A stretch of DNA of 64,000 bases from Candidatus Iainarchaeum sp. GTDB taxonomy: Archaea; Iainarchaeota; Iainarchaeia; Iainarchaeales; UBA10191. Position numbers and translations under genes: made by a program. This document shows, piece after piece, positions 16,605 through 60,833 of the stretch (positions are counted from its first letter, which is position 1; every line of letters begins with the position of its first letter). Location of the stretch: contig JAUSFL010000044.1 in NCBI GenBank assembly GCA_030649735.1, forward strand, positions 14,038 through 78,037, written 5' to 3'. Under the pieces are notes generated by a model, which ran no database searches, was not told where the DNA came from, and saw only the letters and a program-made list of their open reading frames with translations.

Positions 16605-18071
16605 TCAATAGCTTTTGCCAAACAATATTTTTCGTTTTGAGGGCTTTCCGCAGCGAATGCATTTTCCGCTTGAAGGCTTTTGGTTGAATGGAATGCATCT
16701 TGTTCCTGCTGTTGTTTCTGCCTTGATGTTGTCTTCGCATTCTCCTGTTTCGCAAAAGTGCGCCAAAACCATTTTTTTGCCTTCAATGATTTTTTTCAAT
16801 TCTGCCATTGTTGAAGCTTCCACAATGCTCGAGTCAAGGAAAGCTTTTGCTTTTTTGAAAAGAGAGCTTTGCATTTCTTCAAGAGATTTTAAGACTTCCT
16901 TTTTAACTTCAGGAATTTTTACCGGCTTTTTTTCCCCGGTGTCCCTTCGCACAAGCATTATGCTTTCTTTTTCCAGGTCTTTTGGGCCTATCTCAATCCT
17001 TAATGGAATTCCCTTTAGTTCCCACTCGCCATACTTGAAGCCTGGGGAAAGGTTTTCCCTGTCGTCAATTATTGGGTTGAATTCTAGAAGTGCTTTTTCA
17101 AGCTCGCGGGCTTTTTTAAGGACTTTTTCCTTGGAGTCTGTAAATAAAATCGGCACAATCACTATCTTATTGAACGCGATTTTTGGAGGAATCACAAGCC
17201 CTTTATTGTCCGAATGAGTCATTATCAAACCGCCAATAAGCCTTGTTGAAAAGCCCCAGCTGTTTTGCCAGCCAAACTCGAATTCGCCTTTCTTGTTCAG
17301 GAATTTTATTCCAAAAGCTTTTGCGAAATTCTGCCCCAAAAAATGCGTTGTTCCCATTTGCAATGCCTTTCCGTCAGGCATGAATGCTTCCACAGCATAA
17401 GTGTTGACTGCGCCGGGAAATTTTTCCTTTTCAGTTTTGACTCCCAAAATTACGGGAATTGCCAAGAGCTCTTCGTCAAGCTTTTTGTACTCTTGCAGCA
17501 TTTCCAAAGCATCTTTTTCTGCCTCTTCGGGTGTTGCAAAAACATTATGGCCTTCCTGCCACAAGAACTCGCGCGTCCTAAGGAAGAGCTTTGTCATTTT
17601 GATTTCCCAACGCACTATGTTGCACCATTGATTAATGCGCAAGGGCAAGTCACGCCAGCTTCTAATCCATTTTGAATAGGCATCGTACATTATTGTTTCG
17701 CTTGTTGGACGGATTGCAAGCCTTTCCACTGTCTCTTGCCTGTCTTTTTCAACCCATGCAACTTCTGGAGTGAATCCTTCAGCGTGCTCTTGCTCTTTCT
17801 TGAAGAATGATTCTGGAATCAATAATGGAAAATAAGCGTTTTTTACTCCGCGGGCTTTAATGACTTCGTCAAAGTTTTTTTGGATTGCTTCCCAAATTGC
17901 ATAACCGTTGGGGCGAATTGTCATGAAGCCATGAACTGGCGCATAATCTGCAAGCTCTGCTTTTTCGACAATTTGATTGTACCATTCAGAGAAATCCTGC
18001 TCTTTAGTGACTGTCAAGCCGGCAGTCTGAGAGCTCTTTTCATTAATTGCCTGCTTTCTTTGCCCTTGCAT
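16605..18071 (-). CDS. proS: Prolyl-tRNA synthetase, archaeal/eukaryotic type (no bacterial editing insertion)
   Basis: Class II motifs, C-terminal zinc-binding archaeal-type domain, 488 aa. Confidence 0.92.
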   Translation of the reverse strand: MQGQRKQAINEKSSQTAGLTVTKEQDFSEWYNQIVEKAELADYAPVHGFMTIRPNGYAIWEAIQKNFDEVIKARGVKNAYFPLLIPESFFKKEQEHAEGFTPEVAWVEKDRQETVERLAIRPTSETIMYDAYSKWIRSWRDLPLRINQWCNIVRWEIKMTKLFLRTREFLWQEGHNVFATPEEAEKDALEMLQEYKKLDEELLAIPVILGVKTEKEKFPGAVNTYAVEAFMPDGKALQMGTTHFLGQNFAKAFGIKFLNKKGEFEFGWQNSWGFSTRLIGGLIMTHSDNKGLVIPPKIAFNKIVIVPILFTDSKEKVLKKARELEKALLEFNPIIDDRENLSPGFKYGEWELKGIPLRIEIGPKDLEKESIMLVRRDTGEKKPVKIPEVKKEVLKSLEEMQSSLFKKAKAFLDSSIVEASTMAELKKIIEGKKMVLAHFCETGECEDNIKAETTAGTRCIPFNQKPSSGKCIRCGKPSKRKILFGKSY

Positions 18072-25560: not shown

Positions 25561-26910
25561 ATGAGACTGCAAGAGTTTTTCCAAAAATTTGCGCTTTCCG
25601 AAGGAAACCAAGTCAGTGTCTTGACTAAAAAGCAGCAAATTTTGGAAGGAACGCTCATTCCGTCAAATGATGAAGGAATTCTGGCCTTGAAATTAAAGAA
25701 CGGTTATAATGCGGGCATTAAAGTTGAGGAAGTTTCTGAAATCAAGAAAATTTCTGAAGGCAAGACTGTCGGAAAGCCTCCAGTGAAAGAAATCCAGAAA
25801 GACTCAAAAAAGCCGACAATTGCAATACTGCACACTGGGGGAACAATTGCGAGCAGGGTTGATTACGCGACTGGCGCTGTTTACGCAAGCTTTAACGAAA
25901 AAGACCTTTTGACAATGTTTCCAGAGCTTTCGCAAAAGGCAAACATTGTTTCAGAGCACTTAAGCAACATGTGGAGCGATGACATGCGCTTTGCGCATTA
26001 TGCAAAAATGGCAAAGGCAATTGAAAAGCACGCAAGTTCTGGAGTTGCAGGAATAATTATTGGCCACGGCACTGACACTTTAGGATACAGCGCAGCTGCA
26101 TTGGCTTTCATGCTTGAAGGCTTGAATATTCCAGTGCTTTTGGTTGGAGCACAAAGAAGCTCTGACAGGGGCAGTTCTGACGCTGCAATGAATTTGGAAT
26201 GCGCTGCAGAATTTATTCTGAACTCTGACTTTGCTGGAGTTGCTGTTTGCATGCATGATTCTTCAAGCGATTCAAAATGCGCGATTCTTCCGGCCTGCAA
26301 AATGCGAAAATTGCATTCAAGCAGGCGCGACGCTTTCAAGGCAGTGAATGACACTCCAATAGCGCTCGTTGATTACAATTCCAAAAAAATAGATTTCTTG
26401 AAAGAGAATTTTGAAAGGAAAAGCAGCAAGAAAAAGCTTGTTGTTAAGGAAAAAATGGAAGATAAGGTTGCAATACTAAAAGTCCATACTAACATGAGCC
26501 CTGAGCAAGTCAGGTTTTTCGAAAAACAGGAATACAAAGGATTAGTGATTGAAGGAACTGGCCTTGGGCAAATGCCTGGATTTATTCCTGATGATTCCGC
26601 AATGGGAAACAAGGGAATTATTGAAGCAGTCGAATCATTGACAAAATCCGGCTGCGTTGTAGTAATGACTACCCAATGCATTTTTGGAAGAGTGCAAATG
26701 CATGTTTACGACAAGGGCGTGAAATTGATAAAAGTGGGAGTTATTCCGGGAGAAGACATGCTTGCTGAAACCGCGTTCGTGAAGCTTGCGTGGCTTTTGG
26801 GGCAGTATCCAAAAAGTCCTGAAAAAGTCAAAGAGCTAATGGTAAAAAACTTGCGCGGGGAAATAACTGAAAGGACAAATTTTGACGAAGACTTTGCAAA
26901 AGAGCTCTAA
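25561..26910 (+). CDS. gatD: Glu-tRNA(Gln) amidotransferase subunit D
   Basis: Asparaginase-type domain (ILHTGGTIAS, GHGTDT) with an N-terminal GatD extension. Confidence 0.9.
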   Translation: MRLQEFFQKFALSEGNQVSVLTKKQQILEGTLIPSNDEGILALKLKNGYNAGIKVEEVSEIKKISEGKTVGKPPVKEIQKDSKKPTIAILHTGGTIASRVDYATGAVYASFNEKDLLTMFPELSQKANIVSEHLSNMWSDDMRFAHYAKMAKAIEKHASSGVAGIIIGHGTDTLGYSAAALAFMLEGLNIPVLLVGAQRSSDRGSSDAAMNLECAAEFILNSDFAGVAVCMHDSSSDSKCAILPACKMRKLHSSRRDAFKAVNDTPIALVDYNSKKIDFLKENFERKSSKKKLVVKEKMEDKVAILKVHTNMSPEQVRFFEKQEYKGLVIEGTGLGQMPGFIPDDSAMGNKGIIEAVESLTKSGCVVVMTTQCIFGRVQMHVYDKGVKLIKVGVIPGEDMLAETAFVKLAWLLGQYPKSPEKVKELMVKNLRGEITERTNFDEDFAKEL

Positions 26911-26921
26911 AACTTTAGAAA

Positions 26922-27356
26922 TTGAAAGTTTGCGTGGGAAAATTAATGGATAATTTTCGGGTTGCTGTAAAAGCATTGATTTTGGACGACGAAAACAATT
27001 TGCTGCTTGTCAGGCGAAGCCATGATGACAAAGTGGCCGCCGGGCTTTGGGAAATTCCTGGCGGAAGGCTGGAGCTTGGCGAAAGCCCTTTTGATGGATT
27101 AAAGAGAGAAGTGATGGAAGAAACTGGAATTCCAATAGATATTGGGGCTCCAGTAAACGTGCAGCATTTCACAAACACGGACAAGGTTGTAATAACAATG
27201 ATTATTTTCAAATGCAAGGCGCTTTCAAAGGAAGTAAAGCTTGTTGACGGAGAGCTTTCAGAATTTGGCTGGGTGAAAATTCCTGAAGCAAAAGCCAAAA
27301 TTACAAAATACTTCCATAAGGAAATAGATATTCTGGAAAAAATGGCTGGTGTTTAG
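26922..27356 (+). CDS. Nudix hydrolase
   Basis: Canonical Nudix box GGRLELGESPFDGLKREVMEETGI. Start may be the ATG at 26946. Confidence 0.8.
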   Translation: MKVCVGKLMDNFRVAVKALILDDENNLLLVRRSHDDKVAAGLWEIPGGRLELGESPFDGLKREVMEETGIPIDIGAPVNVQHFTNTDKVVITMIIFKCKALSKEVKLVDGELSEFGWVKIPEAKAKITKYFHKEIDILEKMAGV

Positions 27357-27358
27357 AA

Positions 27359-29248
27359 ATGCCGAAACTAAAATGCGGGATTGAAGTGCACCAGCAGCTT
27401 GATACTGGAAAATTGTTCTGCCGCTGCCCGAGCTTTTTGCGCGATGACAAGCCAGAATTCACTGTTGAAAGAAAGCTTCGTGCTGTTGCATCTGAAATGG
27501 GCGAATTTGACGCTGCAGCCTTGGAAGCAATGCAAAAGAATTATACGTTTGTTTATGAAGGACACCACGAAAACGCATGCCTAACGGACATTGACGAATC
27601 CCCGCCAATGCCAGTTGATAAAGAAGCCTTGAGAATAGTCCTAGAAGTTGCATTGCTTGCAAAATCAACAGTGCTTGACAAGGTTTTTGTAATGCGAAAG
27701 GCAGTTGTTGACGGAAGCAACACTTCAGGCTTCCAAAGAACAGCGCTTGTCAGTACTGGCGGAAGCCTGAAAATCAATGAAAAAAAAAGCGTGGGCATTC
27801 AGACAATTGCGTTGGAAGAGGACGCTTGCAGGCCTTCAAAGAAAGACGAGGAAAACAAGAGAATTTACTACCGTCTGGACAGGCTGGGAATTCCATTGAT
27901 TGAGCTTGCGACAGCGCCAGACATTGAAACTCCAGAAGAGGCAAAAGAGACTGCATTGGCCATTGGAAAATTATTGAGGATTACTTGCAAGGCAATGAGG
28001 GGCTTGGGGACAATAAGGCAGGACTTGAACATCAGCATTGAAGGCGGAGCAAGAATTGAAATCAAGGGCTGCCAGGATTTGGAAATGCTTGAAGAGCTTG
28101 TAAGGCGGGAAATGCAAAGGCAGGAAAAGCTTTTGGAATTGAAGAAAATTCTTTCTTCAAAAGCAAAGCCCGAAGATTTTGGAAAATTCGAGATTTTAGA
28201 GCTTTCGGAATTTTTCAAGAATTCTGAAAACAAGCTAGTGAAGGGAAAAAAGATTTTTGGGGCAAGAATTCCAAAAATGAAAGGACTGCTTGGAATTGAA
28301 TTACAGCCCGGAAGACGGTTTGGAAGCGAATTGTCAGACCAAGTGAAGGCAAAGGCAGGCTTGAAGGGATTATTGCACAGCGACGAGCTGCCGAATTATG
28401 GAATTACTGAAGCAGAGAAGAGTCGCATTGCAGGCAAGCTTGATATTCCTCTTGACGATATACTGCTCCCTTATGGCGACGCTTTCATTCTAGTGATTGC
28501 AGAAAAAGAAGCAGCGGAGAAAGCATTCAAAGCAATCAGCGCAAGGATTTTGCAGGCTTTCAAAGGAGTTCCTGAAGAAACCCGCAATGCTTTAGAGAAC
28601 GGAAACACTGAATATTCGCGCCCTTTGCCCGGAGCTGCTAGAATGTATCCTGAAACCGACATTGCTTCTTTTGAAACTTCAGAAAAAGAACTCAGCGAGT
28701 TGGAGAAAGAGCTGCCTTTATGGCCGCAAGAACGCGTGAGGCTTTACACTGAAAAATTCGGGGTTTCAAGACAGCTTGCAGAAAAGATGTCATTGGACAA
28801 TTACGCAATCTTTTTTGAAAGCCTTGCGAAAAAAGGCTTTGATGCAACGCAAGCCGCTGTTTTGCTTTTGGAGGGATTGACTCAGCTTTCAAGGGAAGGA
28901 ATCAATGTTGAAAAATTTACGGAGCAACAGATTGAAGAATCATTGCAGCTTTTGAAAGATAAAAAACTGACCAAAGAGACAGTTCTTGAATTCTTGAAAT
29001 TACGGAGCAAAAATCAGTTCAAACTTGCAGCGGAATTGCTAAAAGAGTTAGGCACTACAAGTGTTTCAGAAAAAGAAGTGCAAAAAACAATTGCCGCAAT
29101 TGTTGCAAAAAGCTCTGCGCTCATTAAGGAAAAAGGCGACCGGGCAATTTCAGCATTGATGGGTGAGGCAATGAAAGAACTGAAAGGAAAAACTGACGGG
29201 GCAACAATCTCGCGAATTCTAAAAGAAGAAATTGCAAAGCTCAAATAA
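27359..29248 (+). CDS. gatE: Glu-tRNA(Gln) amidotransferase subunit E
   Basis: N-terminal KCGIEVHQQLDTGKLFCRC, AspRS-like insertion, C-terminal GatB/YqeY tail. Contains an in-frame copy of the dispersed 16-mer at 29045-29060. Confidence 0.9.
   Translation: MPKLKCGIEVHQQLDTGKLFCRCPSFLRDDKPEFTVERKLRAVASEMGEFDAAALEAMQKNYTFVYEGHHENACLTDIDESPPMPVDKEALRIVLEVALLAKSTVLDKVFVMRKAVVDGSNTSGFQRTALVSTGGSLKINEKKSVGIQTIALEEDACRPSKKDEENKRIYYRLDRLGIPLIELATAPDIETPEEAKETALAIGKLLRITCKAMRGLGTIRQDLNISIEGGARIEIKGCQDLEMLEELVRREMQRQEKLLELKKILSSKAKPEDFGKFEILELSEFFKNSENKLVKGKKIFGARIPKMKGLLGIELQPGRRFGSELSDQVKAKAGLKGLLHSDELPNYGITEAEKSRIAGKLDIPLDDILLPYGDAFILVIAEKEAAEKAFKAISARILQAFKGVPEETRNALENGNTEYSRPLPGAARMYPETDIASFETSEKELSELEKELPLWPQERVRLYTEKFGVSRQLAEKMSLDNYAIFFESLAKKGFDATQAAVLLLEGLTQLSREGINVEKFTEQQIEESLQLLKDKKLTKETVLEFLKLRSKNQFKLAAELLKELGTTSVSEKEVQKTIAAIVAKSSALIKEKGDRAISALMGEAMKELKGKTDGATISRILKEEIAKLK
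29048..29059 (+). repeat. Dispersed element copy inside gatE, in frame (LGTT)
   Basis: Exact 12-mer within the 16-mer GAGTTAGGCACTACAA. Confidence 0.8.
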
Positions 29249-53378: not shown

Positions 53379-55310
53379 TTATTTTTTTGAAATTGTTTTT
53401 TCAAATATTTTCTGCAGTTCTTTCGCGTCTGCCTTGCCTTTTGCAGCGCGCATTGCCTGCCCGACAAGGAAATTTAGGGCTTTTTCGCTGCCGTTCGCAA
53501 AGTCTTGCGCGGCCTTCTGGTTTTCTGAAGCAATTTTTTTACAGATTTCTTCAAGTTCTTTTCCGCCAAGCTTTGAAAGCAGGCCTTGCGAGCTCAAATA
53601 CTGCAAGGGGTCTATCTTTTCGCTTACAATCCGAATCATTGTTTCTTTGGCGATTTTTTCATTGATTTTTCCAGCCTGCAGAAATTCAAGCAGGGAAATT
53701 ATTTTTTTTGCGGGAATTTCGGCCTCGGCAAGGGACAAATTGCCGTGGTTGAGTATTGCCAAGAGCTCGCGCGTGAGGAATTTTGCCGAAAGCTTTGCGT
53801 CAATTTTTTTGGAAACTTCATCAAAGAGCTTTCCGAGCTCGAAGTCCGAGACTATCACGCGCGCTTCATATTCTGTAAGGCCTTTTTCTTTCACTATGCG
53901 TTTTATTTTTTGCTCTGGCAGTTCTGGCAGTTCTGCCTTGATTTTCTTGATTTTTTCTTCAGAAACTTCAACAACCGGCAGGTCTGGCTCGAAAATATAT
54001 CCGTAATCCTCTTCGGTTTCTTTTGTTCGAAGGCTTCTTGTCTTTCCGGTTGTTTCATCAAAAGACCTTGTTTCGCGAATTGGCTTTCCGCCAGCCGCTA
54101 TTAATTTCGTTTGCCTTTCAACTTCAAACTTCAAAGCGTCTTCAACTGCCTTAAAGCCAGTCACGTTTTTCACTTCGACTCTTTCAAAGCCCTGCATTGA
54201 AACATTTGTGTCTGCCTTCATTACGTTTTTTCCCAAGACAAAAACATTCAAGTAATTCAATAAATTCAGGAGCAAGTCCAGGAATTCGCGCGCTTCTTCA
54301 GGGGTTTCCATGTCCGGGTCAGTGACTATTTCAAGCAATGGGATTCCCGAGCGGTTGTAGTCAATGAGCGAGTAATTGCTTGACGAGATTCCTGCCTCGT
54401 GCACTAATGCTGCCGGGTCTTCTTCCAAGTGAACTCTTGTAATGTTGATTGTTTTTCCATTTTTTAAATTCAGGCTGCCTTTTTCCCCTAATGGAATTTC
54501 AAACTGCGTGATTTGGAAGTCTTTCGCCAGGTCTGGATAAAAGTATGTTTTCCTGCTGAAAAAGAATTCCTTGTTGATTTTGCAGTTCAATGCCAGCGCT
54601 ACCTTTAATCCCATTTCAACTGCCTTTTCGTTCAATGAAGGCTTGCTGCCTGGCATTCCGAGGCAGATTTCGCAGACTCTGGAGTTTGGCTTGTCTTCAA
54701 CTTCTGCGCCAGAGCCTGAAATCGCTTTTTCAATGCCTTCTTTTTCGGCAATGACTTCATCGCTTGAAATTTCCGCAATTTTGTAATTGTCAATTGCCTT
54801 GAGGAATTCTTTTTTTGAAATTATTATTCCTGAATAATGGTTTCCGGCATTGAATGAAATCAATTCATTTTCCAAAAGCCTTTTGTCAATTATTTTTTTC
54901 ACGCCTTCAATTGTTGGTGGAACTGCCCCTACAGAGCAGCCGGTGAATTTCAGCACTTCTTCAGGAGTTGCTGGCCTTATTTTTTCTCTATTCAATGCTT
55001 CTGAAGATTTTTCCAAATCCAGTTTTCTGTCTCCCGGAAGAATGAAAATGACCGGGTTTCCTGAACTGACGCAAACCATTGCTTTTGCTATCTGGCTTGC
55101 CTTGAGGTTTCTTTCCCTTGCGGAGTCAGCGCAGCGCATTGCGAGGCCATGCTGCACGTACTTGAAGTCAATTCCTTTATTTTCCAAATAATTCTTGACC
55201 CAAGGCGCTTTCATTGCCTGTGTCGGGCATTTGCAGAAAAGCTTTGTTTGAGTGTTCAATTGAATATGGATTTCAAGGCCCATCATTGGCGTAAGGCTTT
55301 TCTGGCTCAT
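53379..55310 (-). CDS. gatB: Asp/Glu-tRNA amidotransferase subunit B with an inserted YbaK/ProX-type deacylase domain
   Basis: GLEIHIQLNT..KLFCKCPTQ, then ~170-aa insert (aa ~32-205; nt ~54696-55217), then PNSRVCEICLGMPGSKP..ALALNC and the rest of GatB including the C-terminal YqeY tail. The insert aligns to YbaK. Confidence 0.85.
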   Translation of the reverse strand: MSQKSLTPMMGLEIHIQLNTQTKLFCKCPTQAMKAPWVKNYLENKGIDFKYVQHGLAMRCADSARERNLKASQIAKAMVCVSSGNPVIFILPGDRKLDLEKSSEALNREKIRPATPEEVLKFTGCSVGAVPPTIEGVKKIIDKRLLENELISFNAGNHYSGIIISKKEFLKAIDNYKIAEISSDEVIAEKEGIEKAISGSGAEVEDKPNSRVCEICLGMPGSKPSLNEKAVEMGLKVALALNCKINKEFFFSRKTYFYPDLAKDFQITQFEIPLGEKGSLNLKNGKTINITRVHLEEDPAALVHEAGISSSNYSLIDYNRSGIPLLEIVTDPDMETPEEAREFLDLLLNLLNYLNVFVLGKNVMKADTNVSMQGFERVEVKNVTGFKAVEDALKFEVERQTKLIAAGGKPIRETRSFDETTGKTRSLRTKETEEDYGYIFEPDLPVVEVSEEKIKKIKAELPELPEQKIKRIVKEKGLTEYEARVIVSDFELGKLFDEVSKKIDAKLSAKFLTRELLAILNHGNLSLAEAEIPAKKIISLLEFLQAGKINEKIAKETMIRIVSEKIDPLQYLSSQGLLSKLGGKELEEICKKIASENQKAAQDFANGSEKALNFLVGQAMRAAKGKADAKELQKIFEKTISKK

Positions 55311-56752
55311 TGAACCGCCTTTTCAATCATTCTTGAAGCCTGCAATAATTGCAGTTCTTGCAGGTAATTTCCAGTAAGCATTAATCCAACCGGCATTTTT
55401 CCTTCAAAGCCTGCATTAATGCTTGCGTGAGGCAGGCCTGCAAGATTTGCCGGAACAGTGCAAAGGTCCATTGCGTAATTTTGCAATGGAGAGAGCTTTT
55501 CAATTTTTGAAAATTCTGGCGCGATTATTGGCATTGTCGGGCTTGCGAGAATTTCTGCTTTTTTGAAGGCTTGCTGGAATTCTTGAATCAATAAAGTCCT
55601 TACTTTCATTGCCTTCAGATAATACGCGTCCCTAAAGCCGCTCATTCTTGCGAAAGTTCCCAGAATTATCCTGCGTTTTGCCTCTTCTCCAAAGAATTCA
55701 GTCCTTACTTTAGTGAAGTACTCGTCAAAGCTTCCTTCAAGATTTAATGCGTTTCCATAGCGCAGCCCGCAGTATTTTGCCAGGTTTGTCGAGGATTCAG
55801 TCATTGCAACCAGGTAGTATGCTGGAATTCCGTATTTTGCGTTTAATGGAAGCGAAATTTCTTCAAGCTTTGCGCCTTCGCTTTCAAGCCTTTTCAATGC
55901 TTTCCAGACTGTTTCTGACACTTTCTTGTCAATTCCTTCGCTAAAGAATTCTTTTATAATTCCAATCTTCAATTCTTTAGGTTGTTTTTCCAAAAGCTTT
56001 GAGTATTCTTCAACTGGATTTGGCAGTGAAGTGCTGTCTTTTTCATCAATTCCTGCGATTGATTCAAGCATTAACGCCGCATCTTGGGTGTTTTTTGCCA
56101 TTGATCCTATTTTGTCAAGTGAACTCGCATAATCCATGAGTCCATAGCGTGAAACCCTGCCGTAAGTTGGAGTAAAGCCAAAGACTCCGCAAAATGAGGC
56201 AGGACATGCTATAGAGCCGCCAGTGCTTTCTGCAATTCCTGCATGGGTGTTTTCAGTCAATGCGGCAAATCCAGCGCTTCCGCCAGAGCTTCCGCCACAG
56301 CTTCTTTTCTTGTCGTATGGATTCAAAGGAATTTGGAATCCTTTTCCTACATTAGTGCTGAAAGTTCCAAACCCAAACTCGTCCTGGCTTGTTTTTCCAA
56401 TTATTATTGCGCCCTCGCGCTCAGCTCGTTCAACTGCAGTCGCGTTGAATAATGGCTTGTAAGTTTTCAAAATCGCGCTTCCCGCAGTGCTTTCGACTCC
56501 TTTCACGCAAAGGCAGTCTTTTACTGAAACTGGAATTCCGAACAATTTTCCGCTGGCTTTTCTTGCCTTGAGTTGCTTGTCAAGCTCTTTTGACTTTTGC
56601 AGTGCTTTTTCCCAGGATATTTCATTAAAGTGATGGAATTCTTTATTGGAGTTTTTTGCCTCGCTGATTATTTTTTGCGTGTTTTCTTCCACTGAAAGCT
56701 CTCCGCTAGTGAACTTTTCCTGCAATTCTAAAATTGAAAGCGCTTTTTTCAT
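55307..56752 (-). CDS. gatA: Amidotransferase subunit A (amidase signature)
   Basis: Amidase-signature Gly/Ser-rich GGSSGGSAG; ATGA start/stop overlaps with gatC and gatB. Confidence 0.9.
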   Translation of the reverse strand: MKKALSILELQEKFTSGELSVEENTQKIISEAKNSNKEFHHFNEISWEKALQKSKELDKQLKARKASGKLFGIPVSVKDCLCVKGVESTAGSAILKTYKPLFNATAVERAEREGAIIIGKTSQDEFGFGTFSTNVGKGFQIPLNPYDKKRSCGGSSGGSAGFAALTENTHAGIAESTGGSIACPASFCGVFGFTPTYGRVSRYGLMDYASSLDKIGSMAKNTQDAALMLESIAGIDEKDSTSLPNPVEEYSKLLEKQPKELKIGIIKEFFSEGIDKKVSETVWKALKRLESEGAKLEEISLPLNAKYGIPAYYLVAMTESSTNLAKYCGLRYGNALNLEGSFDEYFTKVRTEFFGEEAKRRIILGTFARMSGFRDAYYLKAMKVRTLLIQEFQQAFKKAEILASPTMPIIAPEFSKIEKLSPLQNYAMDLCTVPANLAGLPHASINAGFEGKMPVGLMLTGNYLQELQLLQASRMIEKAVQ

Positions 56753-57048
56753 TCTAAAACCACTTTTGGGCCTTTGAAGTAGCCATTTTTTGAATGCTTT
56801 GCCAATGAAAGCGCTTCCTCTTGTGAAATGCATTCTCCCGCATTGTCTTTCCTGAAAACATTCTTTACAGGCAATGGCTGGAAGGAAGGCTTTGCTTTTG
56901 AAACATCGACTTCATCAAGCCTGTCAAAGACTTCAAGAATTTCTTTCATTTGCGAAAGGAACTTTTTCACCTCGCTTTCCGAAAGCTTCAGGCGCGAGTT
57001 TTTCGCGACTTTCAGGATTAATTCTTCATCAAGCTTTAATTTAGGCAT
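56749..57048 (-). CDS. gatC: Amidotransferase subunit C
   Basis: 99-aa GatC-like protein; stop overlaps the gatA start (ATGA). Confidence 0.75.
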   Translation of the reverse strand: MPKLKLDEELILKVAKNSRLKLSESEVKKFLSQMKEILEVFDRLDEVDVSKAKPSFQPLPVKNVFRKDNAGECISQEEALSLAKHSKNGYFKGPKVVLE

Positions 57049-59069: not shown

Positions 59070-60833
59070 TTATTTTTCTTCCTGGATTTTAATGCGCAGT
59101 TCTTTCAGTTGCTTTTCTGAAACGCCTGCGGGGGCGTTTTCCATTAGTGCAATGCCTGACTTGTTTTTTGGGAATGCAATCACGTCGCGGATGCTTTCAG
59201 AATTTGTCAAGAGCATTAGCAAGCGGTCTATTCCAATCGCAAAGCCTCCGTGAGGCGGAGCTCCATGGCCGAATGCCGAAAGCATGAAACCGAATTTTTC
59301 CTTTGCTTCTTCCTCATTTATTCCCGCAATATTGAAAACGCGCATTTGCAATTCTGGAATGTGGATTCTGATGCTGCCTGAAGCCATTTCATAACCGTTA
59401 TAGACTAGGTCGTAAGCGCTTGATTTTGCATCCAATGGCCTTTTTTCCAGGTCTTCCAAAGGCTCTATTTTAGGCCAGGTAAACATATGATGCGTGGCAT
59501 TGTATTTTCCGTCCTCTTCGCTCCATTCAAACATTGGGAATTCCAGAACCCAAAGGAAAGCATGCTGGCTTTCGTCAATTATTTTCAGTTTTTTCCCCAA
59601 ATGATTCCTCACTTGCCCTAAAGAATTGCTTGCCACTGCATAATTGTCTGCCACTATAACTATCAAGTCGCCTTTTTCCGCATTCATTTTCTTTTTCAAT
59701 TCTTCAATTGTTTTTTCGTCAAGGAATTTTGAAATTGAGCTTTCAATTCCTTTTTCAGTGAATTTTACTGTAACCAGCCCTTTTGCCTTGTAAATTTTTG
59801 CGACTTCTTCCATTTCCTTGATGTCTTTTTGCGAAAAGATTGCACAGTTTTTCGCGTTCAAGGCGCGAATGCTTTTTTTTGCAGCAGCGGCTTTCTTGAA
59901 AATTTCAAACCCGGAGTTTTTGAAAATGTCAGTGACTGTCTCAAGTTCCAGGCCAAAGCGAACGTCTGGCTTGTCCACTCCGAATCTTTCAAGCGCTTCA
60001 ACGTAAGGCATTCTTGGAAATGGAGTTTGCAATTTTATTCCCAAAGCCTGCTCGAAAGCAAATGCCATTGCGCCTTCGGCGACTTCAAAAATGTCTTCTT
60101 CTTTCACAAAACTCATTTCAACATCCAATTGCGTGAATTCCGGCTGCCTGTCTCCGCGCAAGTCTTCATCGCGCAGGCATTTTGCAATTTGGAAATAGCG
60201 GTCGAAGCCTGCAACCATTAGCATTTGCTTGTATAATTGCGGGCTTTGCGGGAGCGCAAAAAATGTTCCTGGATTTGTCCTGCTTGGGACTAAATAATCG
60301 CGCGCTCCTTCAGGAGTTGACTTTGCCAATAATGGGGTTTCAACTTCCACAAAAGCCTGCAAGTCCATGAAGTCCCTGATTGCTTTTATGAATTTGTGGC
60401 GCAAAAAGATTTTTTGCTGGCTTTTTGGATTGCGCAAGTCCAAATACCTGTATTTTAACCGCACGTCTTCGCCGACTGGAACTCTTCCATCAATTTCGAA
60501 AGGGACTGAAGTGCAGGCATTCAATATTTCAATGCTGTCTGCAACTACTTCAATCTTTCCAGTGTTTATTTTTTCGTTTTCAGTGCCTTTAGGCCTTGCA
60601 GAGACTGTTCCGGAAATTTGTATTACAAACTCTTTTCCGACAGTTTTTGCCTGCTCGTGGACTTTCTTGTTTTGCTCTGCATTGAATACGGCTTGCGTTG
60701 TTCCGTAACGGTCACGCATTTCAAAAAAAGTCAATTCTCCATGGTCTCTGCGTTTTGCAACCCAGCCTTGCAGGATTATTTTTTTTCCAACCTGCTTTTC
60801 AGACAATTCGCCGCAAGTGTGAGTTCTTTTCAA
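59070..60833 (-). CDS. aspS: Aspartyl-tRNA synthetase, bacterial type (with GAD insertion), probably non-discriminating
   Basis: 587 aa, N-terminal OB, class II motifs ([10 protein letters not shown]; [13 protein letters not shown]), GAD-like insertion. Confidence 0.9.

Follow-up and report, generated by a model that had tools for sequence, protein, structure and literature searches.

What question is raised by this locus is why a subunit of a tRNA-dependent amidotransferase should carry, within its own N-terminal Cys4 motif, a domain that resembles aminoacyl-tRNA deacylases. GatB is a subunit of the amidotransferase that converts Asp-tRNA(Asn) to Asn-tRNA(Asn). The indirect route to Asn- and Gln-tRNA passes by design through a mischarged intermediate, and current accounts of how it is kept from translation invoke only channelling in the transamidosome and rejection by the elongation factor; we know of no hydrolytic proofreading step in this route. 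The architecture found here hints at such a quality-control step in the Asn-tRNA amidation pathway. The analysis covered a stretch of 64,000 nucleotides, referred to below as the window.

The gatB gene and its inserted domain

The features of the operon and the parts of the gatB product are the following.

53379..55310 (-): gatB open reading frame, 643 aa plus stop codon; GatB carrying an inserted editing domain
55215..55310 (-): GatB N-terminal segment, aa 1-32; a first GatB_N stretch of its own in Pfam
54741..55205 (-): INS/YbaK-superfamily (ProX-like) aminoacyl-tRNA editing domain, aa 36-190
54693..54740 (-): weakly conserved acidic/Gly-Ser linker, aa 191-206, leading back into GatB
53382..54692 (-): rest of GatB, aa 207-643, with PNSRVCEICLG and the cradle, helical and YqeY tail domains
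55307..56833 (-): gatA, amidase subunit
56749..57048 (-): gatC

Both gatC and gatA lie upstream of gatB, in the order gatC-gatA-gatB, and the gatB ATG overlaps the stop codon of gatA (ATGA). The reading frame of gatB is open throughout, as had been claimed, and its GC content is even along the whole gene. The product matched the Pfam domains GatB_N (305.9 bits, split in two stretches) and GatB_Yqey (aa 495-639, 104.4 bits), scored above the cut-offs of two GatB equivalog models (NCBIfam NF004012, 514 bits against 338; TIGR00133, 477 bits against 315) and gave fold matches to the GatB structures 3IP4_B, 3AL0_B and 3H0L_B. All 78 columns that are at least 97% invariant among 102 canonical GatBs are kept. 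Residues 1-32 contain the strand GLEIH, with His15, and then FCKC, whose C26 and C28 are the first Cys pair; the second pair (C213 and C216) is located in PNSRVCEICLG. In the alignment with canonical DPANN GatBs, all four cysteines are retained despite the insert. Judged from its sequence, the product is predicted to function as the GatB subunit in an archaeal GatCAB of the Iainarchaeota-like DPANN type.

In the same alignment, the additional ~174 residues (aa 33-206) fall exactly between FCKCPTQA and KPNSRVCEICLG, and the insertion between the two Cys pairs put forward in the original prediction was thus confirmed. The insert occupies a surface loop between both pairs of the Cys4 motif. The bacterial 3-10 turn was also considered as the insertion site and was discarded, that element corresponding to residues 183-186 of Staphylococcus aureus GatB. 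The junctions read CPTQA/MKAPW and AEVED/KPNS, and a search for direct and inverted repeats at them returned nothing meaningful. A short N-terminal linker leads from GatB into the domain and a flexible C-terminal one of ~16-30 aa leads out of it; in the latter, residues 191-206 have pLDDT values below 50.

The insert had been described as a YbaK/ProX-type domain. Its membership of the INS/YbaK superfamily stands: it matched Pfam tRNA_edit PF04073 with 78.8 bits against a cut-off of 25.5 (core aa 57-171, nt 54798-55142), and it has a YbaK-type alpha/beta fold. YbaK sensu stricto, a Cys-tRNAPro deacylase, was ruled out, as the scores fell below the cut-offs of both YbaK models (TIGR00011, 46.8-50.4 bits against 153; NF007951, 18.7-19.9 bits against 243); YbaK is restricted to bacteria according to a review. 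The nearest folds are of the ProX/ProXp-x type (2CX5 and 1WDV), with an identity of only 26-27% to ProXp-x (TTHA1699 type, 2CX5; phmmer E 1.7e-10), and similarity to the bacterial ProRS INS domain is low (NF006625, 30-34 bits). The conserved Lys76 (QIAKA, nt 55083-55085) and the loop TGCSVGAVPP (about nt 54918-54947) do not vary among 13 inserted copies, nor do the K, G and P columns of the active-site motifs among 66 homologues. By analogy with YbaK and INS, we take Lys76 and the Gly-rich G-x-x-x-P loop to have active-site roles. The sequence of the insert gave no sign of a substrate pocket suited to Asp or Asn. Among orthologues, mean identity falls from 66% in the insert to 59% in the cradle, 40% in the tail and 38% in the linker. 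The insert is interpreted as a complete, selectively maintained INS/YbaK-superfamily domain, ProX/ProXp-x-like, with putative deacylase activity.

Distribution and relatives of the domain

To establish the distribution of the architecture, an exhaustive HMMER search of 1.84 billion proteins and a metagenome scan were performed. The same loop insertion was detected on at least 12 contigs from many different metagenomes (P0241, P0001, L005-L013 and L019), and at least six more (L014-L018 and P0289) encode an N-terminal version, fused four residues ahead of the GatB strand beta1. The architecture is common to at least 17 independent contigs, mostly intact; a single narrow peptide pattern searched against genome contigs matched only two Iainarchaeum MAGs. 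The embedded editing domain is not a one-off case but a feature of a lineage.

Its presence among close relatives is patchy. The locus L027 is fully syntenic and its GatB core is 72% identical, but the insert is absent, which indicates that the insert is accessory and dispensable in cis. Two related copies are disrupted, one by a ~50-codon deletion and a frameshift (L001) and the other by a frameshift, with the GatB N-terminal strand absent (L002). A single clean origin of the loop insertion is not supported: the bootstrap value for monophyly of the inserts is only 23%, and in the tree the GatB cores with the fusion are mixed among canonical cores. At another locus (L020) a free-standing copy of the domain overlaps the end of gatB; the tree does not support it as the direct ancestor of the insert.

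Among the closest relatives, taken as the best 150 from 1.84e9 proteins, the domain is fused to GatB in three, to the GatB helical/tail module in five and to AspRS in nine, and no fusion to ProRS was found; the INS domains of bacterial ProRS were encountered solely as remote matches (L022 and L023). In a tree whose alignment was built with few GatBs beside free-standing homologues, the insert groups apart from free-standing ProX/ProXp-x and together with the GatB- and tail-fused forms, although the support joining them is weak (34%). The domains fused to the helical/tail module form a clade with 99% bootstrap, and the AspRS-fused ones are scattered among free-standing forms. One protein of the former type, P0243, aligns to positions 300-479 of the GatB model, corresponding to a GatB in which the editing domain stands in place of the cradle. 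One of the AspRS-editing fusions (L032) is encoded 3 kb away from gatC-gatA. Free-standing relatives are also present in Iainarchaeum MAGs (L003), where they bear the JGI label Ala-/Cys-tRNA(Pro) deacylase.

tRNA-charging context and proposed role

Other genes of the window related to tRNA charging are the following.

59070..60833 (-): AspRS, bacterial-type, GAD-containing (aspS_bact, 765 bits), syntenic with gatCAB
25561..26910 (+): gatD, part of the archaeal Glu-tRNAGln amidotransferase
27359..29248 (+): gatE (gatDE span 25561..29248)
16605..18071 (-): ProRS, archaeal/eukaryote-type (proS_fam_I), without editing domain

The synteny of AspRS, gatC, gatA and gatB is shared by the window, L013, L016, L017 and L027, and the AspRS of the window presumably supplies Asp-tRNAAsn. 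Either Asp-tRNA(Asn) or Glu-tRNA(Gln) had been considered as substrate of this GatCAB; since GatDE is encoded in the window, GatCAB is assigned to the Asn route and the Gln alternative is abandoned. No tRNA-Asn, tRNA-Asp or tRNA-Pro genes were found in the loci that were examined.

The reading we favour, to which we give about an even chance, is that the insert is a cis-acting deacylase within the Asn amidotransferase and acts as a safeguard of the indirect route to Asn-tRNA. The beta1 strand pairs with the FCxC strand in a hairpin, so that the inserted and N-terminal forms would probably be placed alike, and in both topologies the domain would probably sit beside the cradle pocket that receives the aminoacyl-CCA end. 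Acting in the manner of the bacterial ProRS INS domain, it would offer a second, hydrolytic site to be sampled by the 3' end of the GatB-bound tRNA. This tRNA would be tRNAAsn, brought by the syntenic AspRS, since Gln is handled by GatDE; a hydrolytic site acting on it would therefore be a fail-safe for the Asn pathway. Its most likely job would be the hydrolysis of wrong aminoacyl-tRNA at the amidotransferase, the candidate substrates being un-amidated Asp-tRNAAsn or Asn-tRNAAsp from mis-amidation. Asp-tRNAAsn is the own substrate of GatB, so its deacylation would be futile unless kinetically gated. [quoted passage not shown] The flipping of the CCA end in transamidosomes has been likened in the literature to the editing movement of aminoacyl-tRNA synthetases.

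A wider proposal, made tentatively and with less confidence than the preceding one, is that these proteins may represent an unrecognised clade of the INS superfamily devoted to the indirect Asn-tRNA pathway, placed according to the lineage in GatB (in the loop or at the N-terminus), on non-discriminating AspRS or on a cradle-less GatB helical/tail module, and that the domain may form a third, hydrolytic site of the transamidosome destroying un-amidated Asp-tRNAAsn or mis-amidated Asn-tRNAAsp.

The principal alternative is an ordinary ProX-type trans-editor tethered to GatB in a compact genome, which would remove Ala, Cys or aminobutyrate from tRNAPro (or from other A73 tRNAs) mischarged by the editing-less ProRS and would have no mechanistic tie to amidation. 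The ProRS of the window carries no editing domain, as the original prediction had noted, and no free-standing PF04073 gene was found in the 64 kb of the window, observations that fit tRNAPro equally well. Among solved structures, the best matches are ProXp-x (2CX5), which deacylates Abu- and Ala-tRNAs, and APE2540 (PMC11295145); the nearest characterised homologues (ProXp-x, YbaK and ProXp-ala) act on Abu, Ala or Cys, mostly on tRNAPro (PMC11295145), the free-standing Iainarchaeum relatives carry the label cited above, and the syntenic L027 manages without the insert. On the other hand, the close relatives include no fusion to an archaeal-type ProRS but repeated fusions to GatB (in two topologies), to the helical/tail module and to AspRS; an internal loop site, strongly conserved, is not what random tethering predicts; and the superfamily generally takes its tRNA specificity from the partner, which in the case of GatB points to tRNAAsn. 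The clearing of Cys- or Ala-tRNAPro, the role originally suggested for the domain, is accordingly not favoured, and this alternative is considered less likely than the fail-safe.

Less probable still is a non-hydrolytic module that binds or shields the aminoacyl-CCA end or docks AspRS, as a hand-off or scaffold for an archaeal Asn-transamidosome that protects the labile ester. That the domain is repeatedly joined to AspRS, GatB and the GatB tail would suit the assembly of such a complex, as would the existence of an AspRS-GatC fusion family, and transamidosomes do protect and channel the intermediate (PMC2811023; PMC3367201). Against it, every copy retains the catalytic Lys and the G-x-VPP loop unchanged, as active deacylases do, although this is not decisive because the same residues also bind substrate. 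Moreover, we know of no precedent for a non-catalytic member of the INS/YbaK superfamily.

Finally, artefact or decay (a chimeric assembly, a mobile insertion, an intein, or a pseudogene beside a canonical gatB elsewhere) could be suspected from the two disrupted copies and the patchy distribution, but it is effectively refuted: the many independent, mostly intact contigs rule out an assembly chimera, the conservation of the insert (higher than that of the catalytic domain) and the junctions, which lack intein splice residues and flanking repeats, rule out an intein or mobile element, and the frame is unbroken and translationally coupled to gatA, with uniform composition and a fully conserved GatB core.

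Comparison with known systems

In bacterial ProRS the INS domain is hosted by a synthetase, whereas here the host is a subunit of a tRNA-dependent amidotransferase and the insertion lies in the Cys4 loop; Ala-tRNAPro is an unlikely substrate of the GatB insert. Thermus thermophilus TTHA1699 (PDB 2CX5/2Z0K) and Aeropyrum pernix APE2540 (1WDV) are single-domain, trans-acting proteins, in contrast to the domain embedded in GatB. INS-superfamily factors have been seen as single-domain proteins that deal mainly with the errors of ProRS; three of the families have no known function, and ProXp-x acts on Abu- and Ala-tRNAs, preferring those with A73 (PMC11295145). Besides ProRS INS, the only fusions of the superfamily named in a 2024 review are protist ProXp-ala on the ProRS N-terminus and plant ProXp-ala with a C-terminal domain, in which the joining partner enzyme tunes tRNA specificity (PMC11295145, PMC11286415). 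That the GatB architecture had not been described, as first supposed, agrees with the literature, in which no fusion of GatB, AspRS or YqeY with the INS/YbaK superfamily and no Asp-tRNAAsn deacylase were found.

Should the wider proposal of a clade devoted to the Asn pathway hold, tRNA-dependent amidation would gain its first described proofreading activity. The GatB-embedded domain, with its sister architectures on AspRS and the GatB tail, provides a clonable system for probing whether there is such a step and on which substrate it acts. Even were the domain a tethered ProX, its repeated joining to GatB, in two topologies, would be a striking case among reduced archaeal genomes.

A precedent for the insertion of a whole domain in the GatB/GatE cradle is the AspRS-like GAD insertion of archaeal GatE (GatDE), also carried by the GatE of the window; it differs from the GatB insert in fold and site, and no hydrolytic function has been attributed to it. 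To our knowledge, none of the described transamidosomes includes a deacylase. These complexes and the bifunctional AspRS-GatC fusion family (NCBIfam NF009460) likewise couple parts of the Asn route, the tRNA 3' end moving between sites without being released (PMC2811023; PMC3367201). The GlnRS of Deinococcus radiodurans, with an appended YqeY/GatB tail, shows that this tail is a portable tRNA-binding module (PMC1865053) and parallels the P0243-type proteins with tRNA_edit and helical/tail domains, the tail being joined to a synthetase in the former and to the editing domain in the latter.

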